Origin: a virus
Taxonomy: Duplodnaviria > Heunggongvirae > Uroviricota > Caudoviricetes
Virus record (IMG/VR): IMGVR_UViG_2734482778_000014
Location: 1 to 13,254 of that record
Direction: 5' to 3' (one strand)
DNA: 13,254 nt
The notes beneath the pieces are model-generated. The model was given only the letters and a program-made list of their open reading frames with translations, did no database searches and had not been told where the DNA came from. How positions within the stretch are numbered: the stretch's first letter is position 1; every line of letters starts with the position of its first letter. Of the stretch, positions 1-13,254 are shown in pieces. A program made the translations under genes and the position numbers.

Positions 1-318
1 ATGAAAAAGATAGCTGCTATATCATTAATTAGTATTTTTATTATGTCTGGTTGTGCTGTGCATAATGATGAGACAAGTATCGGTAAATTTGGTCTTGCAT
101 ATAAAAGTAATATTCAGCGTAAACTCGATAACCAATACTACACCGAAGCCGAAGCTTCTTTAGCCAGGGGTAGAATATCTGGTGCAGAAAATATAGTAAA
201 AAATGATGCAACTCATTTCTGTGTTACTCAGGGCAAAAAAATGCAAATAGTTGAGCTGAAGACAGAAGGTGTAGGATTACATGGTGTCGCTCGTCTGACA
301 TTCAAATGTGGAGAGTGA
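1..318 (+). CDS. small predicted outer-membrane lipoprotein (105 aa), function unknown; probable prophage moron
   Basis: ATG at window position 1; N-terminus MKKIAAISLISIFIMSGC has a basic n-region, hydrophobic h-region and lipobox-like MSG|C (Cys18); residue +2 is Ala rather than Asp, so outer-membrane sorting is expected; stop TGA 316-318; visibly AT-richer than the tail genes downstream. Confidence 0.6.
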   Translation: MKKIAAISLISIFIMSGCAVHNDETSIGKFGLAYKSNIQRKLDNQYYTEAEASLARGRISGAENIVKNDATHFCVTQGKKMQIVELKTEGVGLHGVARLTFKCGE

Positions 319-380
319 GAATATTTTTTGGTAAGCGTCAAATATGCGCGTTCTGGCTGTGCGTAGCCGGAACCTGTGGG

Positions 381-413
381 AGCACGATGCCGATAAGTGA
401 AAGGCATCGTGCT
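381..413 (+). other. perfect 11-bp stem-loop (agcacgatgcc / ggcatcgtgct, 11-nt loop) immediately upstream of a strong Shine-Dalgarno AAGGAGG (417-423)
   Basis: Read directly: 381-391 is the exact reverse complement of 403-413. No T-run follows, so it is not a classical intrinsic terminator; it could be a translational or RNA-stability element or a junction remnant. Confidence 0.4.
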
Positions 414-2294
414 ATGAAGGAGGATTCTATCGATGTGGTCAATGGAAGACGGTTACCAGAGATAGGGCTTATGCATAAAAAAATAAGCCCGTGTACCCGC
501 CCTTTGAGTACGACTATAGACCTGAATACGCTTGGAGCCGCCGAACATCTTGGTTTATGGCGTAACAGTAGCTCGGCTATAGCTTCATATGAACGCAATT
601 ATCCAGAGGAAGGCGGCTTTGCTCAGGGGATGCTTGAGATCCTCGAAGGCGGGAATTATGGAAGAACGCAACGTTATACCACTCGCCGTGGAAATATGTA
701 TGTCCGCTGCCTTGCGGCAAGCTGGGATGTATCAAATCCGCAGTGGGAACCGTGGTTAAGAGTCGGTCATCAGTCAGAGAGTCGTTATTACGAAGGTGAT
801 TTAAATGTTCTAACCGACCCCGGTATTTACAGTGTTACAGGAAAGGCAACAAACGGTCCGATGCTGGACACCGTTGGCGCGACACTACTTGGGATACTGG
901 AAGTAATCAGACGTTTTGATGGTGTGTCTGTCTGGCAGCGTTACACAACCACAGGGAAATCAGAAACCACACAGGGACGCACTTTTGAGCGCGTCTACGC
1001 CGGGAGCAAATGGACCGAATGGCGAGAAGTATATAACTCCTTTTCGTTGCCTCTGAATCTGGGCATCGGTGGCGCAGTGGCAAAACTATCCAGTCTGGAC
1101 TGGCAGACCTACGATTTTGTGCCGGGCAGTCTGATAACCGTGCGGCTTGATAACATGACCAACATTCCCGACGGTATGGACTGGGGCGTCATTGATGGCA
1201 ACCTGATAAACATCGCAGTTGGTCCGAGTGATGATTCCGGTACGGGACGCTCAATGCATGTATGGCGAAGCACTGTAAGTAAAGCCAACTACCGCTTTTT
1301 TATGGTGCGCGTTTCAGGAAATCCGGGAAGCCGCACGATTACAACAAGACGAGTACCAATCATTGACGAAGCCCAGACATGGGGCGCGAAACAGACATTC
1401 AGTGCTGGCCTTTCTGGTGAACTGTTCGGCAATGCTGCGACAGCAACAAAGCTGAAAACAGCCCGTAAAATTAATAACGTTTCGTTTGATGGAACATCAG
1501 ATATTAACCTGACGCCTGAAGATATTGGTGCATTGCCAATAACGGGAGGAACTCTTACCGGCGGTTTAACTGCTGCTGGCGAGATTATTTCCAAATCGGC
1601 GAATGGTCTTCGTATTGCCTATGGCAACTATGGATTCTTTATCCGAAACGATGGTTCAAGCACATACCTCATGTTGACCAATTCGGGCGACAGCCTGGGA
1701 ACATGGAATAGTTTAAGGCCGCTTACCATTAATAACGCCAGTGGAGCTGTTTCTATCGGTAATAGTTTAACTGTTAATGGTGATATAGGAACCAATGCTT
1801 GGGTATATGCAAATCGTTTTGCAATTAATAGCAGTACCGGAATGTGGATAAATATGCGTGACCAGAATGTTATTTTTGGACGTAATGCGGTATCCACCGA
1901 TGGTGCTCAGGCATTGTTACGTCAGGACCATGCTGATCGCAAATTTATGATTGGTGGTCTGGGGAATAAGCAATTTGGCATCTACATGATTAATAATTCA
2001 AGGACAGCCAATGGCACCGATGGTCAGGCGTACATGGATAATAACGGGAATTGGCTTTGCGGTGCGCAAGTTATTCCCGGCAATTATGGTAATTTTGACT
2101 CACGCTATGTGAGAGATGTCAGACTTGGCACACGTGTTGTTCAGACCATGCAAAAAGGCGTGATGTATGAAAAATCAGGTCATGTAATCACGGGGCTTGG
2201 TATTGTCGGTGAAGTCGATGGTGATGACCCGGCAGTATTCAGACCTGTTCAAAAATACATTAACGGAACATGGTATAACGTATCGCAGGTGTAA
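414..2294 (+). CDS. H: phage tail fiber protein with P2 gpH-like C-terminus; N-terminal part divergent, start codon ambiguous
   Basis: Long ORF in frame with the track ORF 306..2294. The C-terminal ~70 aa (NYGNFDSRYVRDVRLGTRVVQTMQKGVMYEKSGHVITGLGIVGEVDGDDPAVFRPVQKYINGTWYNVSQV) matches the conserved P2 H / Mu S / P1 S-type fiber C-terminus as I recall it; the motif GNAATATKLKTARKINNVSFDGTSDINLTPEDIGAL is typical of enterobacterial prophage tail fibers; it is followed by a tail fiber assembly gene. Possible starts: ATG 306 (no SD, overlaps lipoprotein gene), ATG 387, ATG 414, or GTG 435 (11 nt after AAGGAGG). Symbol refers to the P2 homologue by C-terminal similarity only. Confidence 0.8.
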   Translation: MKEDSIDVVNGRRLPEIGLMHKKISPCTRPLSTTIDLNTLGAAEHLGLWRNSSSAIASYERNYPEEGGFAQGMLEILEGGNYGRTQRYTTRRGNMYVRCLAASWDVSNPQWEPWLRVGHQSESRYYEGDLNVLTDPGIYSVTGKATNGPMLDTVGATLLGILEVIRRFDGVSVWQRYTTTGKSETTQGRTFERVYAGSKWTEWREVYNSFSLPLNLGIGGAVAKLSSLDWQTYDFVPGSLITVRLDNMTNIPDGMDWGVIDGNLINIAVGPSDDSGTGRSMHVWRSTVSKANYRFFMVRVSGNPGSRTITTRRVPIIDEAQTWGAKQTFSAGLSGELFGNAATATKLKTARKINNVSFDGTSDINLTPEDIGALPITGGTLTGGLTAAGEIISKSANGLRIAYGNYGFFIRNDGSSTYLMLTNSGDSLGTWNSLRPLTINNASGAVSIGNSLTVNGDIGTNAWVYANRFAINSSTGMWINMRDQNVIFGRNAVSTDGAQALLRQDHADRKFMIGGLGNKQFGIYMINNSRTANGTDGQAYMDNNGNWLCGAQVIPGNYGNFDSRYVRDVRLGTRVVQTMQKGVMYEKSGHVITGLGIVGEVDGDDPAVFRPVQKYINGTWYNVSQV

Positions 2295-2297
2295 TTT

Positions 2298-2825
2298 ATG
2301 CAACACTTAAAAAACATTATTGCGGGAAATCCAAAAACGGTTGAGCAATATAAACTGACAAAGAATTTTGATGTTATCTGGTTATGGGCCGAAGACGGAA
2401 AAAACTGGTATGAGGAAGTAAGTAATTTTCAGGAAGACACGATAAAGATTGTTTACGACGAGCATAATATTATTGTCGCCATCACCAAAGATGCCTCCAC
2501 GCTTAACCCTGAAGGTTTTAGCGTTGTCGAGGTTCCTGATATTACCGCCAACCGACGTGCTGATGACTCAGGTAAATGGATGTTTAAGGGTGGTGCCGTG
2601 ATTAAGCGGATTTATACGGCAGATGAACAGCAGCAACAGGCAGAATCACAAAAGGCCGCGTTACTTTCCGAAGCGGAAAGCGTTATTCAGCCACTGGAAC
2701 GCGCTGTCAGGCTGAATATGGCGACGGATGAGGAGCGCACACGGCTGGCTGTATGGGAACGCTACAGTGTTCTGGTCAGTCGTGTGGATCTTGCAAATCC
2801 CGAATGGCCGGAAATGCCGCAATAA
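2298..2825 (+). CDS. G: tail fiber assembly protein (P2 gpG / Tfa family), 175 aa
   Basis: ATG 2298 with AGGTG SD, 3 nt after the fiber stop; 175 aa, the same length as P2 G; sits directly downstream of the fiber gene, the conserved Tfa position. Similarity is from recalled sequence, not a search. Confidence 0.88.
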
Positions 2826-2859
2826 GTTGTATGAGCTCTGGAGTGAGCTAACGTATCGA

Positions 2860-2901
2860 TAGCACAGAGTAAAGCCTAATCTGACAGTCCGCTCTGTGCT
2901 A
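2860..2901. repeat. perfect 10-bp inverted repeat (tagcacagag ... ctctgtgcta) separated by 22 bp
   Basis: Read directly: 2860-2869 is the exact reverse complement of 2892-2901. Lies in the intergenic region between gene G and the convergent ABC ATPase gene, at the left boundary of the AT-rich cassette. Confidence 0.6.
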
Positions 2902-2959
2902 GGTGCAGACATAGCTTAGAGCAGCTTGTGTAAATCTGCAGGGACGAGCTTAAAGAAGC

Positions 2960-2986
2960 GCCGCCTTCATAGAAGGCAGCATTTTA
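2960..2986. terminator. candidate bidirectional intrinsic terminator between convergent genes
   Basis: Stem gccgccttc (2960-2968) / gaaggcagc (2972-2980), 9 bp with one C-A mismatch and a 3-nt loop, followed by ATTTT on the plus strand and by CTTCTTT on the minus strand; 4 nt from the ABC ATPase stop codon (2984-2986). Confidence 0.45.
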
Positions 2987-5344
2987 CATTTGTCTACTAT
3001 CAATACCTGAACGTGCTGCTTCCATGAAGTTGATCCTTCCTGCTGGCATACCAAATTTTTTGTATTTATAACGAAAATAGGCCGACATACGGTCTTCATG
3101 CGTTGATATAATTATCTGACGATCTCGGAATTCAGTTCGTAGTAACTCGACAAAGCCAGCTACATTAATTTCGTCCAGTGTCTGAACAGGATCATCTACG
3201 AGCAATAGAGAGTGCTTGGCGTACCGCTGATTCAAGGCAAGAGTAAATGATAGTACCAATGCTGAAAGCTGGCCCGAACTCATGGAAAAGACGGCATCAT
3301 GCTCATGCCCTGGTGTTTCATTGAAGGCGATAGAATTACCATCATTTTCTATGAAGATACCCAGCCCCTGCTGATAACTTTGCATAAGGCGACCTGAATA
3401 GATATGAAATAGAATCTCAATCTCTTTAACTATAGATTCGAGATACGATCTTTTCTCACTCTCATAAATTCTTTTGATTTTCTGTAGATGACCTTTCAGT
3501 TTATCGGCCTTTCTAATTAATATTTCAGCTTTATTATACTCCAACTCACATTCCGAGATGTATTTAGATAAAGCAATGGATTGTTGCTGCCCTAAATAAG
3601 TTTTTTTCAATTCAAGTCTTGAGGGGGTGATATATTTAACCGAGAGGGGGTCGTTATTAAACACTTCACGAAAAACTCTCTCAAAATCATCATGGATACA
3701 GCTGTCGTCAACTGGTTTAAATATTTCACGAACGCGACGCTCGAGTTCATCTATCGCGAGTTGTGTTACAGGTTCAAAATTATCGCACAGTAAGTCCTGA
3801 AATATAACCCCCCCAGCTAGTAGTTGTTTATAATAATTTTCTAACCACAGGATTTGTTCTTCTGATAAACTTGTTAGTTGGCGCTTACGCTCAATACTTT
3901 CTTTCTCTTGCACCAGATATGTCTGCAGTACAATTTCAATGGGCTCCTGCCAGTTGCGTCTGAAATTGGCTAGTGCTTGTGAGAATTGATCATTCTGTTG
4001 CTCGGCTAAATTTTCTAGAATTATACGTTGGTTTTCAATTCCTCCAAGCAGAGCATCAGCCGTTGGCCAAGGATGTCCACACGTAGGGCAAATATTTGTC
4101 AAATCGCAGTGAGATTCATGCTTCCTGAAAGCACTTACCATTTGCTCGCGTGTTTGTAGCAGCGCCGCATAGCATTCCTGAACTTTATCTGAATTAGCTA
4201 ACTGCAATTTGAGCCCGGCTACCTGTTGATGAAACTCCTCCGGCGATAGGGTTTCCGGGAGGAGAGTGACCAGTGGAGCAGTGATCACCAAACGATCTTC
4301 ATTGATAGCCTTTATTGTATCTTTAAATGCGTCACTTAGTGCTAAGGCTGATTCAAAACAAGCAACGTCATCCTGCCATTTGTTCCTTTGTTCAATAGAT
4401 TGATAATACATCAAAAACCGCTGTTGTAGCTCCTGTTTAGGGAGGAGTTTCTTTATCAATTCATTATTATATAGCTGATTTTCATATTGTTCGAAATTTT
4501 CAGTAAAACGTCGGACTCGGAATAACTCTCCATCTGCAGATAACCACTGTTCGAATTGCTGTGCATCAACCTCCACAACATCACGATCCCATGGTTGATC
4601 TGTAATTGCGATAATCCTTTCATATGCAACAGAACTATCTGCTGGTAGCATCTGCTGCTTAGCTAGGTCCCATTTATCTTTAAGTTGTTTCATTTCGGCA
4701 TATTTCTGTGGATTACACAATTTACCGATTTTGGTTGATGCCAAGTTAATATTACTAATTTTGTCCTGAATGTCTCCAATATCGAACAGATGTGCAATCT
4801 GGCTCTGTCTATCTTTTTCCTTTTGTTTTAGCAACCGAGTGTTTTCTTCTTGCTCAACATAATGAAACAATTCAAAATCACGTTGATACTGATCTCCTAG
4901 TAAGGCAGAAAGGTATGATTCTTCTTGCGAAATAGCTTCACCTCGCTCCGCGTTGAAATCGGCTAATTCATAAAGAGGAAGCCTTAAATCAGCTACGCCT
5001 TTATGTTCATCTAGAACTGCTTTGCTGGCTGCTCTCTCGAGAAAACAACTACTCCCATCAACTAAGATCTCGGCACGGATTGAAAGCCAATCATCATTTC
5101 TCGCTTGTTTGAATAACCAAGGACAGCCAGTTTTCAAGCTTCGTCGATCTATTGTAAGTTTTTCGAGTTCAATATAGCGCCGGATTTTTCCTGTCAGTAG
5201 CAGTTCTAGTGCATCAAAAAAAGATGATTTACCGAAACCATTGGGACCATCAAGAACAATGAGATATTCACTTTCAAGAGTTAACTCTAGTTTCTCAAAG
5301 ACTTTAAAATTACGTACTTCTAGGCGTTTAACAATCAATTTCAT
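2984..5344 (-). CDS. SMC/Rad50-like ABC ATPase with long coiled-coil insert (LmuB / DdmC-like, ABC-three-component family)
   Basis: Preferred start ATG 5344-5342 (MKLIVKRLEVRNFKVF..., preceded by GAGG); the track ORF begins at an upstream GTG at 5368. Walker A GPNGFGKS at nt 5225-5248; about 650 residues rich in Q/E/K/L heptad-like sequence; CPTC (CxxC) at nt 4079-4090 near the protein midpoint; C-terminal signature-like SSGQ (3269-3280), Walker B LLLVDD (3191-3208) and H-loop STHED (His codon 3098-3100). Stop TAA 2984-2986. Confidence 0.85.
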   Translation of the reverse strand: MKLIVKRLEVRNFKVFEKLELTLESEYLIVLDGPNGFGKSSFFDALELLLTGKIRRYIELEKLTIDRRSLKTGCPWLFKQARNDDWLSIRAEILVDGSSCFLERAASKAVLDEHKGVADLRLPLYELADFNAERGEAISQEESYLSALLGDQYQRDFELFHYVEQEENTRLLKQKEKDRQSQIAHLFDIGDIQDKISNINLASTKIGKLCNPQKYAEMKQLKDKWDLAKQQMLPADSSVAYERIIAITDQPWDRDVVEVDAQQFEQWLSADGELFRVRRFTENFEQYENQLYNNELIKKLLPKQELQQRFLMYYQSIEQRNKWQDDVACFESALALSDAFKDTIKAINEDRLVITAPLVTLLPETLSPEEFHQQVAGLKLQLANSDKVQECYAALLQTREQMVSAFRKHESHCDLTNICPTCGHPWPTADALLGGIENQRIILENLAEQQNDQFSQALANFRRNWQEPIEIVLQTYLVQEKESIERKRQLTSLSEEQILWLENYYKQLLAGGVIFQDLLCDNFEPVTQLAIDELERRVREIFKPVDDSCIHDDFERVFREVFNNDPLSVKYITPSRLELKKTYLGQQQSIALSKYISECELEYNKAEILIRKADKLKGHLQKIKRIYESEKRSYLESIVKEIEILFHIYSGRLMQSYQQGLGIFIENDGNSIAFNETPGHEHDAVFSMSSGQLSALVLSFTLALNQRYAKHSLLLVDDPVQTLDEINVAGFVELLRTEFRDRQIIISTHEDRMSAYFRYKYKKFGMPAGRINFMEAARSGIDSRQM

Positions 5345-6032
5345 AACCTGCCTCAGATAATTTATCACCCATGGAAATTAATAGATCTTCCGGTAATACA
5401 TCCTGTGATACAATCTGAGCAGCTAAAGAATCAATAACTGAGTCGAATGTAGTTAATAGAGCAGGGTTATCCGTGCGCTGAATTTTTTCATTAATACTTC
5501 GTTCAAGGCTAGCTAAATCAGAATTACCAAAGCTATTAACTGCTATAAAAGGCAGTTTTATCACAAGTCTGTATAGTAGGCTTTGCCATCCACCTTGTAG
5601 GTAATGAGATTTATATTCGGTAAAGGTATCAGGAGAAGTAATCAATTCGCGAAAGACTGCTGCGAGTCCTTGGGTATCAACCTGCTGGTATAAAGCTTCA
5701 AGCTCTGCGGTAGTATATGGAAGTACGTGTTTCTTGAAGAAATAACTATCTTCTTCCGCATGATGAACTCTTTTACTACAAAGCACACTTGAGCTGTCAG
5801 TGTTCCATACAATCAATAAATTAATGTTTTTCTCAAGTGCGGGATCGGATGTGGCTTTTTTACATTCATTCAACCACCCAGCTTGGATTTCAGGTGTAAT
5901 TATCGGCTCACCAAAGACTACTAACCAGAAATTTTTCTTACCCAGTGTACTGTATTCGTATAACGCCAAGTCTGTGGAATGTTTACGCGTCAGTCCTTCT
6001 GATTCCAACAATTGCTCAATTAGGTTCTGCAT
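5328..6032 (-). CDS. hypothetical protein, 234 aa; candidate middle component of an ABC-three-component / Lamassu-like system (LmuC / DdmB position)
   Basis: ATG 6032-6030; stop TAA 5328-5330; no motif I can recognise. Sandwiched between the putative effector and the ABC ATPase with 17-nt overlaps on both sides, indicating a co-translated operon. Family assignment is by position only. Confidence 0.5.
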   Translation of the reverse strand: MQNLIEQLLESEGLTRKHSTDLALYEYSTLGKKNFWLVVFGEPIITPEIQAGWLNECKKATSDPALEKNINLLIVWNTDSSSVLCSKRVHHAEEDSYFFKKHVLPYTTAELEALYQQVDTQGLAAVFRELITSPDTFTEYKSHYLQGGWQSLLYRLVIKLPFIAVNSFGNSDLASLERSINEKIQRTDNPALLTTFDSVIDSLAAQIVSQDVLPEDLLISMGDKLSEAGYEIDC

Positions 6033-7332
6033 CTTTCAAACTCTCAGGTACATTGTTTAAAGAAACCATAGCCACCTTCTTATAATTCCCGATGCGGTTT
6101 TCCCTTAGTAATTCGTGTTCAATGGTATCCACTCCCTCAGTGGCGTCGATACCTACGAGTACGTCAGAGATTGAAGGTCTGTCTATGGCGCTGGTGATAA
6201 GTACACCGCCCTCAAATAAACATTCTACATCTTCGCTAATTGCCTGTTGCATGATGTCATGACAGATACTTTCCTGATGCTCTACAGCATGGTGGATACC
6301 TGTTGGATAATAGAAAAGCCCATCATTTAGCCAAGAGAATGCAACACCAGAAACTTCATTTCGTGCAGCCTGAACTAGTTTCCAGAAAATTGTAAACATC
6401 CCAAGTCGCATTGCATCACGATCAAGTGATTGTTCCTTAAATTCATCAAGAGTTCTAAAACGTCCCTTTTTATGCGGCATCGTTGCTCTCAGGAATGACT
6501 TCATTCCATCAACATCCAACGCAGTGATAGCAGCCAGATAGTCATCTAACTTTTGACATGCTGCTTGGGAGAAGCCGTCTTGGCGATCACAAAACTCTTG
6601 GTAGTATGTGCCAATATCAATCTGCAGGCGGCTAAGGAAGAACGCTTCATTCTCAAACGGAGTATAATCGTTTGCTTCGATTACACCATACAACTCAGAA
6701 AACTCGATGAATTCGCCAGCTGCGATTGCCGTCTGATGACGCACAGACTCGTGTATCCGACTATGGGTCATAATGACTTTTGAATTTACTATGGCTTCAA
6801 GCGTGTTCTGAATATTTGCAACGAGATGAATCTTCCAGGCGGGTAGTACTGCGATATTAGAAAGTAGGCTGGTAAGTTTATTCCTAATCAATCTGTCCAC
6901 CTCACTCAGTGGGCAAAAGGATTGTGTGGCATTTCCTTCTACATCAGGTGGAATAGGGTAAGCATAAAATCTCACTGGTCCATAGTCAGCCTCAAATGTT
7001 GCCGGAACGTTCATTACTTCGCGAGCCACATGGAAATAAGCGAGCTGCACACCTCGCTCCCTCGCACTATCCCGTTGGGTAGTGATGCCATCTCTGTAGG
7101 CGGAAAAGCGCGTGTCTTTGTACGCTTTGACCTGATGCATTGACAGGCATTGCTGGTGACGAAAAATTGCGAAATCATCCTGGCTTTCTAGCTGCAGTTT
7201 CAAATCTCGGTTCGCTTCATAATCTGAGGACATCATCTTCAAACAGTGGTACAGCGCCAGCTTGCCCTGATAGACAAATCCACTCCACGTAGAGATGGCT
7301 GTGTGTGGAAAAACTTGAGGAACAACTGCCAT
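6016..7332 (-). CDS. putative nuclease effector with N-terminal PD-(D/E)xK-like motifs (Cap4/DUF4297-like; LmuA / DdmA position)
   Basis: Preferred start ATG 7332-7330 (MAVVPQVF..., upstream AAGGGA); the track ORF begins at GTG 7347. N-terminal region contains GFVYQ (nt 7267-7281), then LQLESQDDFAIF and MHQVK: Asp codons at 7174-7179 and Q-x-K at 7126-7134, a spacing and context consistent with a restriction-endonuclease-like D...(E/Q)xK core. The C-terminal ~300 aa has no recognisable motif. Stop TGA 6016-6018. Confidence 0.5.
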   Translation of the reverse strand: MAVVPQVFPHTAISTWSGFVYQGKLALYHCLKMMSSDYEANRDLKLQLESQDDFAIFRHQQCLSMHQVKAYKDTRFSAYRDGITTQRDSARERGVQLAYFHVAREVMNVPATFEADYGPVRFYAYPIPPDVEGNATQSFCPLSEVDRLIRNKLTSLLSNIAVLPAWKIHLVANIQNTLEAIVNSKVIMTHSRIHESVRHQTAIAAGEFIEFSELYGVIEANDYTPFENEAFFLSRLQIDIGTYYQEFCDRQDGFSQAACQKLDDYLAAITALDVDGMKSFLRATMPHKKGRFRTLDEFKEQSLDRDAMRLGMFTIFWKLVQAARNEVSGVAFSWLNDGLFYYPTGIHHAVEHQESICHDIMQQAISEDVECLFEGGVLITSAIDRPSISDVLVGIDATEGVDTIEHELLRENRIGNYKKVAMVSLNNVPESLKDAEPN

Positions 7333-7415
7333 GAGATCCCTTATCACTTTAGATTCACATCATTGGGACATTCTCAGCACGGAGACTCTTCCCATCCTCT
7401 AACGATATATAGCCT

Positions 7416-7444
7416 ATTGACATATAAAATACTCTTAGTATTTT
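7416..7444 (+). promoter_or_regulatory. candidate sigma70 promoter: TTGACA (7416-7421), 17-bp spacer, TATTTT (7439-7444)
   Basis: Perfect -35 hexamer and acceptable -10 with correct spacing in the AT-rich region between the cassette and FI; predicted transcription start near 7451, reading toward the terminator at 7781-7809. Confidence 0.35.
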
Positions 7445-7780
7445 CGTGGATATTGTTCTATCCCCTAGATTTACATGCTTGTTGCTTATCATATCCTTAC
7501 ACTGAATCTTCGTTGGTTTGGTCAGCATCTCTAACCAGTCCCTCACGGAGAATTACTGCAACAATACAATTGTCATAAAACCTTCCGCTTAGAAGGGAAA
7601 ATGTCAACTCAACAAAGTGGTTGGCCCACTATTGATTAATAAACAATACTAGTAATGCTTCCATCGGCTGTAAGAAAAATTGAGGACTTCCGCTCCTCGC
7701 TCAAAGCAGGCTATCAGACTTGATAGCGTTTTGGCTATGTAAATTGTCAGTTGGAAAATGAGTGAGTACAAATCAGGACA

Positions 7781-7809
7781 GGCGGGCGAATTGCCCGCCT
7801 TTTCTTTAT
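7781..7809 (+). terminator. rho-independent terminator (GGCGGGC gaatt GCCCGCC then TTTTCTTTAT)
   Basis: Perfect 7-bp GC stem with 5-nt loop followed by a T-rich tract on the plus strand; no annotated plus-strand ORF of meaningful size ends upstream of it. Confidence 0.7.
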
Positions 7810-7903
7810 CTGTTGTTTCATCCACTGACCAGCCAGGTCAAATAGCGTCTCATGCACTGTCCAACAGAAAATAGTTGCACCCATTAACCACGGAGTTAAA
7901 CGG

Positions 7904-8565
7904 ATGAGTGACTATCATCATGGCGTGCAGGTGCTGGAGATTAACGACGGCACCCGCGTCATTTCCACCGTATCCACCGCCATTGTTGGCATGGTCTGCA
8001 CGGCCAGCGATGCGGATGCGGAAACCTTCCCCCTCAATAAACCGGTGCTGATTACCAATGTGCAGAGCGCAATTGCAAAGGCCGGTAAAAAAGGCACGCT
8101 GGCGGCGTCGTTGCAGGCCATCGCTGACCAGTCAAAACCAGTCACCGTTGTCGTGCGTGTTGAAGACGGCACCGGCGACGACGAGGAAACGAAACTCGCG
8201 CAGACCGTTTCCAATATCATCGGCACCACTGACGAAAACGGTCAGTACACCGGACTGAAAGCCCTGATGACACGATGGCTGAGGCGCACATGTGGGCTAT
8301 TGATAAGCCCATCACCGCAACGCTGATTCGCGACATCGTTGACGGCATCAATGCCAAATTCCGTGAACTGAAAAGCAACGGTTATATCGTGGATGGCACA
8401 TGCTGGTTCAGTGAAGAAGCCAATGATGCGGAAACCCTCAAGGCCGGAAAACTGTATATCGACTACGACTATACCCCGGTGCCTCCTCTCGAAAACCTGA
8501 CCCTGCGCCAGCGTATTACTTCAAGATACCTGGCAAGTCTGGTCACCTCGGTTAACAGCAATTAA
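7904..8565 (+). pseudogene. FI: tail sheath protein gene FI, disrupted: frame break and apparent internal deletion of about 0.5 kb
   Basis: ATG 7904 with GGAG SD. The N-terminal ~121 codons ([54 protein letters not shown]...TGLKAL) match the P2 sheath N-terminus as recalled. At about 8265-8270 the frame changes, and the sheath C-terminus ([35 protein letters not shown]...LVTSVNSN) continues in another frame to stop 8563-8565. Total coding capacity is about 220 codons, against the roughly 390-400 aa expected for a P2-type sheath. Confidence 0.8.
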
Positions 8566-8577
8566 GGAGCCTGACCG

Positions 8578-9096
8578 ATGGCAATGCCGCGCAAACTCAA
8601 GTTAATGAACGTCTTTCTGAACGGCTACAGCTATCAGGGCGTCGCGAAGTCCGTCACGCTGCCAAAACTGACCCGTAAGCTCGAAAACTATCGCGGTGCG
8701 GGGATGAACGGCAGCGCACCGGTAGACCTCGGCCTTGATGACGATGCGCTGTCAATGGAGTGGTCGCTCGGGGGCTTCCCGGATTCGGTTATCTGGGAAC
8801 TTTACGCCGCAACCGGTGTGGATGCCGTGCCGATTCGTTTTGCAGGCTCTTACCAGCGTGACGATACCGGCGAAACGGTGGCCGTCGAAGTGGTCATGCG
8901 TGGCCGTCAGAAAGAAATCGACACCGGCGAGGGTAAACAGGGAGAAGACACCGAGTCGAAAATCTCCGTGGTCTGCACCTATTTCCGGCTGACGATGGAC
9001 GGTAAGGAGCTGGTCGAAATTGACACCATCAACATGATTGAGAAGGTGAACGGCGTCGACCGGCTGGAGCAACACCGCCGCAATATCGGCCTGTGA
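8578..9096 (+). CDS. FII: tail tube protein (P2 gpFII), 172 aa
   Basis: ATG 8578 preceded by AAGGAG (8564-8569); 172 aa, the same length as P2 FII; sequence MAMPRKLKLMNVFLNGYSYQGVAKSVTLPKL... recalled as P2-type tube; conserved position after the sheath gene. Confidence 0.92.
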   Translation: MAMPRKLKLMNVFLNGYSYQGVAKSVTLPKLTRKLENYRGAGMNGSAPVDLGLDDDALSMEWSLGGFPDSVIWELYAATGVDAVPIRFAGSYQRDDTGETVAVEVVMRGRQKEIDTGEGKQGEDTESKISVVCTYFRLTMDGKELVEIDTINMIEKVNGVDRLEQHRRNIGL

Positions 9097-9103
9097 TTTT
9101 CAT

Positions 9104-9124
9104 CCGGTCAGCCTGGCTGACCGG
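9104..9124 (+). other. stem-loop between tube gene and gene E (ccggtcagc ctg gctgaccgg)
   Basis: Read directly: 9104-9112 is the reverse complement of 9116-9124 (9-bp stem, 3-nt loop), 8 nt after the FII stop. No strong T-run follows, so it is a possible attenuator, processing or stability element rather than a full terminator. Confidence 0.35.
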
Positions 9125-9152
9125 TTAACCCTGATTCAGAAGTGAGAAAACC

Positions 9153-9428
9153 ATGAACAAAGAAAATGTGATTACCCTGGACAATCCGGTCAAGCGTGGT
9201 GAGCAGGTTATCGAACAGGTCACGCTGATGAAACCCAATGCCGGGACGCTGCGCGGTGTCAGTCTGGCAGCGGTCGCGAACTCCGAAGTCGATGCACTGA
9301 TTAAGGTGCTGCCGCGCATGACGGCACCGATGCTGACCGAGCAGGAGGTCGCCGCGCTGGAACTGCCTGACCTTGTGGCGCTGGCCGGTAAGGTGGTCGG
9401 TTTTTTGTCGCCGAACTCGGTGCAGTAA
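9153..9428 (+). CDS. E: tail assembly chaperone (P2 gpE), 91 aa
   Basis: ATG 9153; 91 aa, the same length as P2 E; conserved position between tube and tape measure genes; contains the slippery heptamer near its 3' end. Confidence 0.88.
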   Translation: MNKENVITLDNPVKRGEQVIEQVTLMKPNAGTLRGVSLAAVANSEVDALIKVLPRMTAPMLTEQEVAALELPDLVALAGKVVGFLSPNSVQ

Positions 9429-9580
9429 CGTTTCCGAAAAATCTCTCGGTCGATGACCTGATGGCGGATGTGGCAGTGATATTTCACTGGCCGCCATCAG
9501 AACTGTATCCCATGAGCCTGACCGAACTCATCACATGGCGCGAAAAGGCGCTCCGGCGAAGCGGAAACACGAATGAGTAA
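9153..9580 (+). CDS. E': tail assembly chaperone E+E' fusion made by programmed -1 ribosomal frameshift
   Basis: Slippery heptamer T TTT TTG at 9401-9407 in the correct phase of the E frame (ggT TTT TTG); after a -1 shift the frame stays open to TAA 9578-9580, overlapping the T start codon at 9573. Combined product is about 142 aa. E/E' frameshifting is established for P2 and analogous to lambda G/GT. Confidence 0.75.
9401..9407 (+). promoter_or_regulatory. -1 frameshift slippery site TTTTTTG for E/E'
   Basis: Heptamer fits the X XXY YYZ pattern in the E reading frame; the -1 frame downstream is open for about 58 codons. Confidence 0.75.
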
Positions 9581-12020
9581 CAATGTAAAATTACAGGTAT
9601 TGCTCAGGGCTGTTGACCAGGCATCCCGCCCGTTTAAATCCATCCGCACAGCGAGTAAGTCGCTGTCGGGGGATATCCGGGAAACACAACAATCACTGCG
9701 CGAGCTGAACGGTCACGCATCCCGTATTGAGGGATTTCGCAAGACCAGCGCACAGCTCGCCGTGACTGGTCAGGAACTGAAAAAAGCCAGACAGGAAGCC
9801 GCAGCTCTGGCTGTCCAGTTTAAAAATACTGAACGACCGACAAATGCACAGGCAAAGGCAATGGAAGCCGCGCGTAAAAATGCGTCTGAGTTACAGGCGA
9901 AATATAACAGCCTGAGATTGTCGGTACAGCGCCAGCGTCAGGAATTGAGTCAGGCGGGTATTAATACCCGTAATCTGGCGCATGATGAACGAGGGCTGAA
10001 AAACCGTATCAGTGAAACCACCGCACAGCTTAACCGGCAGCGTGACGCGCTGGTGCGTGTCAGTGCGCAACAGGCAAAACTTAATGCAGTAAAACAGCGT
10101 TATCAGGCCGGAAAGGAACTGGCCGGAAACATGGCCTCAGTGGGCGCTGCTGGTGTGGGGATTGCGGCGGCGGGAACGATGGCCGGAGTTAAGCTGCTGA
10201 TGCCCGGCTATGAGTTTGCGCAGAAAAACTCAGAATTGCAGGCCGTGCTGGGTGTGGCAAAAGACTCCGCCGAAATGGCCGCGCTACGCAAGCAGGCGCG
10301 CCAGCTCGGCGACAATACCGCAGCCTCGGCGGATGATGCAGCCGGTGCGCAGATTATCATTGCGAAAGCCGGTGGGGATGTTGATGCCATTCAGGCGGCA
10401 ACGCCGATCACGCTGAATATGGCGCTGGCGAACCGTCGCACGATGGAAGAAAACGCCGCTCTGCTGATGGGGATGAAATCCGCCTTTCAGCTTTCAAACG
10501 ATAAGGTCGCTCATATCGGGGATGTTCTCTCCATGACGATGAACAAAACCGCCGCCGATTTTGACGGCATGAGCGATGCGCTGACCTATGCCGCACCTGT
10601 GGCAAAAAATGCCGGTGTCAGCATTGAAGAAACCGCCGCAATGGTCGGGGCACTGCATGATGCAAAAATCACAGGCTCAATGGCGGGGACGGGAAGTCGT
10701 GCCGTGTTAAGCCGCCTGCAGGCACCGACGGGAAAAGCATGGGATGCACTCAAAGAACTTGGTGTGAAAACCTCAGACAGTAAGGGAAACACCCGGCCAA
10801 TATTTACCATTCTGAAAGAAATGCAGGCCAGTTTTGAGAAAAACCGGCTCGGTACTGCCCAGCAGGCTGAATACATGAAAACCATTTTCGGGGAGGAAGC
10901 CAGCTCAGCCGCCGCCGTGCTGATGATTGCCGCCTCAACCGGAAAGCTGGACAAACTGACTGCTGCGTTTAAAGCCTCAGACGGGAAGACCGCAGAGCTG
11001 GTAAATATCATGCAGGACAATCTCGGCGGTGACTTTAAGGAGTTTCAGTCCGCTTATGAAGCGGTGGGGACAGACCTGTTTGACCAGCAGGAAGGCGCAC
11101 TGCGTAATCTCACGCAGACGGCCACAAAGTATGTGTTAAAACTAGACGGCTGGATCAAGAAAAACAAATCACTGGCGTCAACCATCGGCCTCATTGTCGG
11201 TGGCGCACTGGCGCTTATTGGCATCATCGGTGCCATTGGTCTTGTAGCCTGGCCGGTTATCACCGGCATCAATGCCATTATCGCGGCAGTGGGCGCAATA
11301 GGGGCAATCTTCACGACGGTTGGCAGTGCCGTTATGACGGCCATCGGGGCGATTAGCTGGCCGGTTGTGGCCGTGGTGGCCGCCATTGTCGCCGGGGCGT
11401 TGCTTATCCGTAAATACTGGGAGCCTGTCAGCGCATTCTTTGGCGGTGTGGTTGAAGGGCTGAAAGCAGCATTTGCGCCGGTGGGGGAACTGTTCACGCC
11501 ACTTAAGTCGCTGTTTGACTGGCTGGGCGAAAAGTTACAGGCCGCTTGGCAGTGGTTTAAAAACCTGATTGCCCCGGTTAAAGCCACCCAGGACACCCTG
11601 AACCGTTGCCGTGACACGGGCGTCATGTTCGGGCAGGCACTGGCTGACGCGTTGATGTTGCCGCTTAATGCGTTCAACAAACTGCGCAGTGGTATTGACT
11701 GGGTACTGGAAAAACTCGGTGTTATCAACAAAGAGTCAGACACACTTGACCAGACCGCCGCCAGAACTCATGCCGCCACGTATGGCACCGGTGGTTATAT
11801 TCCGGCGACCAGCTCTTATGCAGGCTATCAGGCTTATCAGCCGGTCACGGCACCGGCTGGCCGCTCTTATGTAGACCAGAGTAAAAACGAATATCACATC
11901 AGCCTGACGGGTGGTACTGCGCCGGGGACACAGCTTGACCGCCAGTTACAGGATGCGCTCGAAAAATACGAGCGGGATAAACGTGTGCGCGCCCGTGCCA
12001 GCATGATGCATGACGGTTAA
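9573..12020 (+). CDS. T: tail tape measure protein (P2 gpT), 815 aa
   Basis: ATG 9573; 815 aa, the same length as P2 T; coiled-coil-rich N-terminal half and a long Gly/Ala/Ile-rich hydrophobic segment (around nt 11150-11420) typical of tape measure proteins; conserved position after E/E'. Confidence 0.93.
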   Translation: MSNNVKLQVLLRAVDQASRPFKSIRTASKSLSGDIRETQQSLRELNGHASRIEGFRKTSAQLAVTGQELKKARQEAAALAVQFKNTERPTNAQAKAMEAARKNASELQAKYNSLRLSVQRQRQELSQAGINTRNLAHDERGLKNRISETTAQLNRQRDALVRVSAQQAKLNAVKQRYQAGKELAGNMASVGAAGVGIAAAGTMAGVKLLMPGYEFAQKNSELQAVLGVAKDSAEMAALRKQARQLGDNTAASADDAAGAQIIIAKAGGDVDAIQAATPITLNMALANRRTMEENAALLMGMKSAFQLSNDKVAHIGDVLSMTMNKTAADFDGMSDALTYAAPVAKNAGVSIEETAAMVGALHDAKITGSMAGTGSRAVLSRLQAPTGKAWDALKELGVKTSDSKGNTRPIFTILKEMQASFEKNRLGTAQQAEYMKTIFGEEASSAAAVLMIAASTGKLDKLTAAFKASDGKTAELVNIMQDNLGGDFKEFQSAYEAVGTDLFDQQEGALRNLTQTATKYVLKLDGWIKKNKSLASTIGLIVGGALALIGIIGAIGLVAWPVITGINAIIAAVGAIGAIFTTVGSAVMTAIGAISWPVVAVVAAIVAGALLIRKYWEPVSAFFGGVVEGLKAAFAPVGELFTPLKSLFDWLGEKLQAAWQWFKNLIAPVKATQDTLNRCRDTGVMFGQALADALMLPLNAFNKLRSGIDWVLEKLGVINKESDTLDQTAARTHAATYGTGGYIPATSSYAGYQAYQPVTAPAGRSYVDQSKNEYHISLTGGTAPGTQLDRQLQDALEKYERDKRVRARASMMHDG

Positions 12021-12034
12021 GGAGGTGACGAAAA

Positions 12035-12514
12035 ATGATGCTCGCGTTAGGTATGTTTGTTTTTATGCGCCAGACGCTGCCACACCAGACCATGCAGCGT
12101 GAATCTGATTATCGCTGGCCGTCAAATTCCCGTATCGGTAAACGGGATGCCTACCAGTTTCTCGGTGTTGGCGAGGAAAACATGACGCTTGCCGGTGTGC
12201 TTTATCCTGAACTGACCGGCGGAAAGCTGACGATGACCACGCTCAGGCTGATGGCAGATGAAGGCCGGGCGTGGCCGTTGCTGGATGGCACCGGCATGAT
12301 TTACGGCATGTATGTCATCAGCAAGGTGAGTGAAACAGGGAGTATTTTCTTTGCAGACGGCACACCCCGGAAAATTGATTTTACGCTGTCGCTCACCCGC
12401 GTTGATGAATCACTGGCCGCGCTTTATGGCGATATCAGTAAACAGGCGGAGTCGCTCATCGGTAAGGCCGGCAGTATGGCGACCAGATTCACAGGTATGA
12501 CGGGGGCGGGATAA
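12035..12514 (+). CDS. U: tail protein gpU, 159 aa
   Basis: ATG 12035 preceded by AAGGAGGTGA; 159 aa, the same length as P2 U; stop TAA 12512-12514 overlaps the D start by 1 nt. Confidence 0.9.
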   Translation: MMLALGMFVFMRQTLPHQTMQRESDYRWPSNSRIGKRDAYQFLGVGEENMTLAGVLYPELTGGKLTMTTLRLMADEGRAWPLLDGTGMIYGMYVISKVSETGSIFFADGTPRKIDFTLSLTRVDESLAALYGDISKQAESLIGKAGSMATRFTGMTGAG

Positions 12515-13254
12515 TGCTGGATGCGCTGACATTTGATGCAGGCAGTACGCTGACGCCGGATTATATGCTGATGCTCGACAGCAGGGATATTACCGGCAAT
12601 ATCAGCGACCGTCTGATGAGCATGACCCTGACGGATAACCGGGGCTTTGAGGCTGACCAGCTTGATATTGAACTGAACGATGCCGACGGGCAGGTCGGGC
12701 TGCCGGTTCGTGGCGCTGTCCTGACGGTGTATATCGGCTGGAAAGGTTTTGCCCTGGTATGCAAAGGAAAATTTACCGTTGATGAGGTTGAACACCGGGG
12801 CGCACCGGATGTGGTCACCATCCGCGCCCGGAGTGCAGATTTTCGCGGGACGCTCAATTCCCGCCGTGAAGGCTCCTGGCATGACACCACGCTCGGTGCG
12901 ATTGTTGAGGCGATAGCCTCCCGTAACAGGCTGGAAGCCAGTGTCGCTCCGTCACTGGCCGGAATTAAAATCCCGCACATCGACCAGTCGCAGGAGTCTG
13001 ATGCAAAATTCCTGACCCGCCTTGCTGAACGCAACGGCGGTGAGGTGTCGGTAAAAATGGGAAAACTGTTGTTTCTCAATGCGGGGCAGGGGGTGACGGC
13101 CAGCGGTAAAAAAATCCCGCAGATTACCATCACCCGCAGCGATGGCGACCGTCATCATTTTGCGATTGCTGACCGCGGAGCCTACACAGGTGTAACGGCA
13201 AAGTGGTTACACACCAAAGACCCGAAGCCGCAAAAGCTGCGTATTACCGTGAAG
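12514..13254 (+). CDS. D: tail protein gpD (late control / tail formation), 5' portion only; runs off window end
   Basis: ATG 12514 in a TAATG overlap with the U stop; frame open for 247 codons to the end of the window (MLDALTFDAGSTLTPDYMLMLDSRDITGNISDRLMSMTLTDNRGFEADQLDIELNDADGQ...). Not in the ORF track because no stop codon lies within the window. Confidence 0.88.
   Translation, partial: MLDALTFDAGSTLTPDYMLMLDSRDITGNISDRLMSMTLTDNRGFEADQLDIELNDADGQVGLPVRGAVLTVYIGWKGFALVCKGKFTVDEVEHRGAPDVVTIRARSADFRGTLNSRREGSWHDTTLGAIVEAIASRNRLEASVAPSLAGIKIPHIDQSQESDAKFLTRLAERNGGEVSVKMGKLLFLNAGQGVTASGKKIPQITITRSDGDRHHFAIADRGAYTGVTAKWLHTKDPKPQKLRITVK

Follow-up and report, generated by a model that had tools for sequence, protein, structure and literature searches.

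The stretch of DNA analysed in this study, hereafter the window, comprises the 13,254 nucleotides (nt) at positions 1 to 13,254 of IMG/VR virus record IMGVR_UViG_2734482778_000014 (Caudoviricetes), and represents the module of tail genes (H, G, FI, FII, E/E', T, U, and the beginning of D) from a P2-like (Peduovirus) prophage. Between G and FI it contains a three-gene operon, lmuA-lmuC-lmuB, on the minus strand (Table 1). In our reading, which we hold with a probability of about 0.85, the region 6016-7332 is the gene for LmuA, i.e. for the nuclease effector in a Lamassu (ABC-three-component, ABC-3C) defence system made up of three genes. The initial annotation of this locus had delimited the first gene of a three-gene cassette at 6016-7347, and this is indeed a real and intact minus-strand open reading frame (ORF) of 443 amino acids (aa) when begun at GTG 7347. 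However, the limit at 7347 is less likely to be the true start than ATG 7332, which gives a protein of 438 aa and is favoured because an AAGGGA Shine-Dalgarno sequence lies 4 nt upstream and because the database gene calls of close relatives are mostly 438 aa. Since the GTG at -15 (7347) is also conserved, as GTG or ATG, in relatives, there is a slight chance that the protein carries five extra N-terminal residues. Residues are numbered throughout from ATG 7332.

The identification is based on profile searches and on gene content. The LmuA model of PADLOC matches aa 14-251 of the lmuA product with an E-value of 9e-18, and a Pfam scan reporting matches at E<=1 finds Cap4_nuclease at aa 15-78 (E 1.5e-5, 25.7 bits) and CTD1 (PF20276) at aa 121-382 (E 2.5e-26). 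Among 36 LmuA relatives, 28 match Cap4_nuclease at E<0.01 (best 2.8e-7) and all 36 match CTD1. The window holds the complete gene content of an ABC-3C system: LmuA is a fusion of an effector to a C-terminal domain (CTD), a middle component lies between the effector and the ATPase as in type II systems, and the third gene encodes an SMC-like LmuB. The Cap4_nuclease match, the PADLOC matches of both LmuA and LmuB, and the CTD1 and MComp1 domains of ABC-3C systems thus bear out the earlier proposal, made from the sequence alone, that the gene encodes a Cap4/DUF4297-type effector of the kind found in Lamassu. Searches of NCBIfam and PHROGs returned nothing for LmuA or LmuC.

A database search yielded 336 LmuA homologues, mostly from Enterobacterales, Vibrio, Shewanella, and Pseudomonas, many of which carry the NCBI name "ABC-three component system protein". 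An exhaustive LmuA profile search of 1.84 billion representatives returned 778 clusters with E<=0.001, of which 228 reached E<=1e-30. Judged from these searches, the LmuA family is real, yet not large.

Predicted nuclease and C-terminal domains of LmuA

The N-terminal motifs of LmuA are WSGFVYQGK (aa 16-24), LKLQLESQDD (aa 44-53), and LSMHQVK (aa 63-69). The initial annotation had already pointed to them as a helix with GFVYQ followed by two strands, LQLESQDD and LSMHQVK; all three motifs were found, and the guessed secondary structure agrees with the AlphaFold2 model described below. The codons that it had singled out for point mutation were likewise placed exactly, with 7174-7179 encoding D52-D53 and 7126-7128 encoding K69. 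In an alignment of 36 homologues with overall identity down to 22%, the invariant positions are W16, S17, G18, Y21, Q22, G23, K24, D53, F54, S64, H66, Q67, V68, K69, A70, Y79, and H101, and position 49 is Glu or Asp in every one of them. These invariant residues concentrate within the first 100 aa, and the conservation of the motifs, as judged from this alignment, is far beyond chance.

The AlphaFold2 model, built from the same 36-member alignment with a predicted local distance difference test (pLDDT) score of about 90 over aa 20-180, places in the N-terminal domain a helix at 16-36, strands at 44-48, 53-58, and 61-69, a helix at 80-93, and a strand at 98-102. This alpha-beta-beta-beta-alpha-beta topology is the core of PD-(D/E)xK nucleases. 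In the model, E49 ends strand 1, D53 begins strand 2, and Q67-x-K69 lies on strand 3, so that an acidic residue opening strand 2 is combined with (D/E/Q)xK on strand 3, the hallmark of these nucleases. When the model was compared with known folds, Acinetobacter Cap4 (6vm6) scored 12.9, Lamassu LmuA (9ux8_C) 11.1, Avs3 (8dgc) 10.4, Hachiman HamA (8zue) 9.2, Salmonella LmuA (9hqx_A) 9.0, Enterobacter Cap4 (7yib) 8.2, LmuA (9nxx_A) 7.8, EcoT38I (7e8r) 7.7, and DUF4297 (8ziq) 7.1, and many restriction enzymes come after these entries. The PD-(D/E)xK fold suggested at first from the motifs thus agrees with both the predicted core topology and the matches to Cap4, LmuA, and restriction enzymes. In the proposed Foldseek check, the top three matches were LmuA chains, albeit with weak E-values. 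Taken together, a restriction-endonuclease fold of LmuA is supported by structure prediction and residue conservation, with very low sequence similarity to solved examples.

From the position of the motif, we propose K69 as the counterpart of the catalytic lysine K57 of V. cholerae LmuA. K57 has been reported to be essential for cleavage and defence, and metal-dependent cleavage of double-stranded DNA is lost in V. cholerae LmuA K57A and in the corresponding Lys-to-Ala (KA) mutant of Salmonella enterica LmuA.

The remaining roughly 300 aa, in which the initial annotation could name nothing, are largely covered by the CTD1 match. The accompanying guess that this part is regulatory or docks to the ATPase agrees with the published work on short Lamassu, where the LmuA C-terminal domain is buried by LmuB and LmuC at rest and later, once released, mediates tetramerisation. 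By analogy, CTD1 of LmuA is predicted to be a docking or oligomerisation domain. In the AlphaFold2 model this region forms long helices (142-321) followed by a small sheet (334-343, 377-380, and 421-424), with an acidic low-confidence loop at about aa 388-414, an architecture which agrees with the published description of the longer LmuA C-terminal domains of long Lamassu, with their helices, acidic loop, and beta-sheet. Ten distant CTD1 proteins with longer N-termini, sampled for signs of effector swapping, showed only CTD1 by Pfam (one also Cap4) and no alternative effector.

Partner genes, cargo insert, and other genomic contexts

LmuC is always encoded between the other two genes in related loci. 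Its predicted structure (pLDDT 85.8) has an N-terminal domain that resembles restriction-endonuclease-fold proteins with modest Z scores of 5-7 and lacks a canonical catalytic motif. A search with the LmuC model retrieved neither SbcD nor any solved LmuC, so that a published feature was not reproduced. The idea that LmuC is a duplicated nuclease is unsupported, as the LmuC profile, when aligned by hhalign with that of the LmuA nuclease domain, reached a probability of 0.2%.

The lmuB ORF extends over 2984-5368 and would encode 794 aa if begun at GTG 5368. ATG 5344 (786 aa) is the likely start, because a start there yields the overlap of 17 nt that is found at both junctions of the cassette (6016-6032 and 5328-5344) and in all related loci. 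The conservation of this overlap length in all related loci suggests translational coupling and a fixed stoichiometry of the three products. LmuB contains a Walker A motif (GPNGFGKS, aa 33), a single CPTC of the zinc-hook type (aa 419), a signature motif (SSGQ, aa 689), and a Walker B motif (LLLVDD, aa 713). Its best PHROG match is an SbcC-like subunit (E 8.5e-18), and phmmer against PDB sequences matched it only to N-terminal P-loop segments of Rad50/SMC proteins and to no solved LmuB chain. Both results fit the long clade of Lamassu being nearer to SbcC.

Homology of the module upstream of lmuA reaches about 7502-7617, and the conserved stretch of about 190 nt next to the gene is probably where the promoter and 5' leader of the cassette itself lie. 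Small ORFs in this leader, as well as a plus-strand ORF at 7246-7578, look spurious. Rfam gave no match on the cargo region including the leader, and a promoter scan was uninformative, as shuffled sequence gave more sites than the real one.

The cassette is the only content of a 4.9-kb insert with a GC content of 41%, as compared to 55% for the phage DNA on its right side. On either side, window 1-2912 and 7775-13254 show 92-96% identity to P2-like phages of E. coli and Yersinia. On the P2 map the gene fun lies between G and FI. The locus holding fun is the second P2 defence hotspot of Vassallo et al., and we take the G/FI site of the cassette to be this hotspot; Rousset et al. covered only the other P2 hotspot (A/Q, old-tin). 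At the right boundary of the hotspot, just inside it and upstream of FI, a strong GC hairpin (AGGCGGGCGAATTGCCCGCCT) followed by a T-run is located at 7780-7800. This hairpin is common to phage vB_EcoM-720R8 and may be a terminator insulating the cargo from tail-gene transcription.

The sheath gene FI has an internal deletion of 529 nt relative to vB_EcoM-720R8, with a breakpoint at about 8269. Its length is not a multiple of 3, and two ORF fragments are left (7904-8326 and 8275-8565). The prophage is therefore probably defective, or else the deletion is an assembly artefact. Three other E. coli assemblies, compared with window 2227-13237, carry a 99.95-100% identical cassette at the same P2 site. 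Their flanking tail genes show different deletions: the sheath is shortened to 290 aa, the tube gene lacks its 5' half, or the tape-measure gene lacks about 2 kb. A near-identical cassette amid differently decayed phage genes points to retention of the defence cargo, as far as the compared sequences can tell.

Among 5,426 complete E. coli genomes, only three contain a relative, all at about 80% identity and none within a prophage. Nothing was matched when 50,697 phage records were searched with LmuA by tblastn, so none of these deposited phage genomes encodes one. The module (window about 2950-7600) is found at 80-87% identity in E. coli, Morganella, Pantoea, and metagenomes, with gene lengths constant across relatives (438, 234, and 784-786 aa) and the 17-nt overlaps retained, and the leader of about 190 nt and the terminator accompany it into these other contexts. 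In seven such loci, from E. coli, Morganella, Pantoea, and metagenome contigs, the cassette adjoins smpB/ssrA (transfer-messenger RNA, tmRNA), and the tmRNA-linked cassettes are usually accompanied by a tyrosine integrase. A type IIG (Eco57I/MmeI-like) restriction-modification enzyme adjoins the cassette in E. coli, Pantoea, and one metagenome contig; beyond this enzyme lie Hachiman genes (a HamB-like helicase, and in Pantoea HamA as well), but not in E. coli.

Table 1. Coordinates of the features of the window (positions in nt)
Feature	Position	Strand	Basis or remark
lmuA, predicted 438-aa effector	6016..7332	-	ORF; 336 homologues; PADLOC LmuA; Pfam Cap4_nuclease and CTD1
Predicted N-terminal Cap4-like PD-(D/E)xK nuclease domain, aa 1-138	6919..7332	-	
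Predicted catalytic residues E49 (7186-7188), D53 (7174-7176), Q67 (7132-7134), K69 (7126-7128)	7126..7188	-	conservation; codons verified
LmuA C-terminal region, ABC-3C CTD1, aa 139-438	6019..6918	-	Pfam PF20276; AlphaFold2 secondary structure
lmuC, 234-aa middle component (MComp1)	5328..6032	-	Pfam PF20289 E 3e-10; 49 homologues, nearly all 234 aa
lmuB, 786-aa SMC/Rad50-like ABC ATPase	2984..5344	-	PADLOC LmuB E 1e-61; Pfam SMC_N E 1.3e-18
Terminator-like hairpin just past the lmuB stop	2959..2981	-	inside the module common to other genomic contexts
Conserved upstream leader/promoter region, travelling with the cassette	7333..7525	-	alignment with four other genomic contexts
Low-GC cargo insert between G and FI	2913..7774	.	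homology to vB_EcoM-720R8 ends at 2912 and begins again at 7775
H, tail fibre	306-2294		
G, tail-fibre assembly	2298-2825		
FI, sheath	from 7904		
FII, tube	8578-9096		
T, tape measure	9573-12020		
U	12035-12514		

Relationship to known Lamassu systems and other nuclease systems

Haudiquet et al. (2025) divided 3,829 Lamassu systems into a short class (3,293) and a long class (536). Short systems have a LmuB of about 600 aa with the Walker B consensus hhhhD[Q/S/T/E] and zero to two CxxC motifs, whereas long systems have a LmuB of about 800 aa with the consensus hhhhDD and exactly one CxxC. Every solved structure and almost every validated system falls into the short class. The window LmuB shows all three features of the long class, i.e. 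its length of 786 aa, LLLVDD, and one CPTC. By this comparison of sequences, the window system is a member of the long Lamassu class whose effector is of the Cap4 nuclease type. It shares with the long systems of the Cap4 subtype not only the properties of LmuB but also a longer LmuC and the extended LmuA C-terminal domain described above. The paper on the long class makes no mention of prophages, unlike the prophage location of the window cassette.

Among the closest known systems are short ones of type II, namely V. cholerae DdmABC (VcLmuACB) and Salmonella enterica LmuACB (PDB 9hr5, 9hqx, and 9nxx). The gene order (effector, middle component, and SMC-like ATPase) is the same, and the effectors share an N-terminal Cap4-type PD-(D/E)xK domain with a catalytic lysine on strand 3, which is predicted in the case of the window LmuA, along with a non-catalytic C-terminal domain. 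In contrast, LmuB is longer in the window (786 versus about 600 aa), its Walker B is LLLVDD rather than hhhhD[Q/S/T/E], and it has one zinc hook where V. cholerae LmuB has none.

Two further systems share single components with the window cassette. CBASS Cap4 (PF14130; PDB 6vm6 and 7yib) differs in that it has a SAVED sensor and depends on a cyclic-oligonucleotide synthase, whereas regulation of LmuA would be exerted via the SMC-like complex instead of a nucleotide signal. SbcCD/Rad50-Mre11 has the same Rad50/SbcC-type head, coiled coil, and zinc hook in the ATPase partner, but its nuclease is the Mre11 phosphoesterase instead of a restriction-endonuclease-fold enzyme, and the window genes are mobile defence cargo.

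Proposed mechanism and alternative explanations

The gene identities, the fold, the conserved predicted catalytic residues, the operon architecture, and the mobile defence-island and prophage-hotspot context were computed here. The mechanism that we propose for the window system follows published structures and biochemistry of short Lamassu, and by analogy with these we infer nuclease activity, sequestration, the trigger, oligomerisation, and an abortive outcome. In the resting state, an A1B2C1 complex would hold one inactive monomeric LmuA, whose CTD1 would be buried by the LmuB dimer and LmuC. The signal for LmuB and LmuC would be aberrant DNA ends or replication intermediates that stem from an incoming phage or plasmid; published work has implicated palindromic hairpins as well. 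LmuA would then be freed and would oligomerise through its C-terminal domain, as a tetramer in the short systems, and two nuclease domains would pair to form one working active site. The activated LmuA would cut DNA with little sequence preference, and the cell would be killed or arrested, resulting in abortive infection. The sequestration geometry and the release step seem the least secure parts of this mechanism, because the window system is a long one with different adaptor modules.

Several observations weigh against assigning LmuA to Lamassu as a Cap4-type nuclease effector with such a mechanism. The Cap4_nuclease score of LmuA (25.7 bits) narrowly misses the Pfam gathering cut-off of 26.2. 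PADLOC gave no LmuC match for the middle gene. When all PDB sequences were searched by phmmer with LmuA, LmuB, and LmuC, no chain of Lamassu or Cap4 was retrieved, and LmuA profiles from the full-length and the N-domain alignments gave against PDB sequences only spurious matches plus HamA at E 0.18, which is the sole meaningful sequence alignment to solved chains and in which GFxxQ, DD, and QVK line up. The window proteins have CTD1 and MComp1 where DdmABC has CTD7 (PF20283, in DdmA) and MC3 (PF20131, in DdmB), and Pfam detected neither CTD7 nor MC3 in LmuA or LmuC at E<=1. The sole validated long Lamassu has hydrolase-protease effectors, not Cap4. Finally, in AlphaFold3 models to which Haudiquet et al. 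refer, LmuA and LmuC of long systems lie at the LmuB heads and not near the hook; therefore, the sequestration geometry of short systems and the step of release and tetramerisation may not transfer.

This head placement leads to the alternative that survives best, although we consider it rather improbable. In long Lamassu with CTD1 and MComp1, the nuclease would stay docked at the LmuB heads in an SbcD-like manner and would cut the sensed DNA in cis or be gated by the middle component, rather than leave to form free tetramers. Apart from the AlphaFold3 models just mentioned, such docking would be consistent with the position that Haudiquet et al. assign to long Lamassu, between SbcCD and short Lamassu, with the standard hhhhDD Walker B and single zinc hook of the window LmuB, as in SbcC, and with its best PHROG match being an SbcC-like subunit. 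CTD1 is also larger than the solved C-terminal domains of short systems and has no detectable sequence relation to them. However, the effector belongs to the Cap4 type, which in short systems depends on dimerisation. A variant which we find more doubtful still is that the nuclease is docked at the LmuB heads, that the N-terminal domain of LmuC, as a pseudo-nuclease partner, occupies or controls the nuclease dimer interface, and that activation occurs by partner swap or by cleavage in cis.

We regard it as very unlikely that LmuA is a catalytically dead scaffold or remnant, with the cassette decaying along with the defective prophage and its defence function lost. The surrounding P2 tail genes are indeed deleted in part, and the deletions vary between strains, but the three ORFs are intact with lengths as in every relative, the predicted catalytic and ATPase motifs are intact, and the cassette remains 99.9-100% identical in strains whose flanks have decayed differently. 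The chance that LmuA belongs to another system with a Cap4 nuclease (CBASS Cap4, Hachiman HamA, or Avs-type STAND) and merely adjoins an unrelated ATPase is close to nil, since LmuA has no SAVED (Pfam), STAND, or helicase domain and ends in the CTD1 of ABC-3C, no CD-NTase is found among the window ORFs and no HamB or other helicase gene in the window, and in each of the contexts examined the three genes overlap translationally and keep their synteny. A stand-alone restriction enzyme was likewise rejected, given the strict synteny of the three genes.

In summary, the window contains a three-gene Lamassu operon of the long class in which LmuA is most probably a Cap4-type nuclease effector, which would be controlled by an SMC-like complex. 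There is little new in kind in this system, as Pfam (CTD1 and MComp1), PADLOC, and NCBI already recognise the family and the split between long and short Lamassu has been published. What the window adds is a compact 4.4-kb long Lamassu-Cap4 cassette of E. coli with its own leader and terminator, which is a candidate for experiments from a class without a solved structure and with barely any validation. A further addition is the record of an SMC-based system at the second hotspot (G/FI, "fun") of P2-like prophages, where it is kept near-identical while the tail genes decay. Characterising this cassette would show the contributions of the larger CTD1 and MComp1 modules, and whether the scheme of sequestration, release, and tetramerisation holds in the branch of Lamassu closest to SbcCD.

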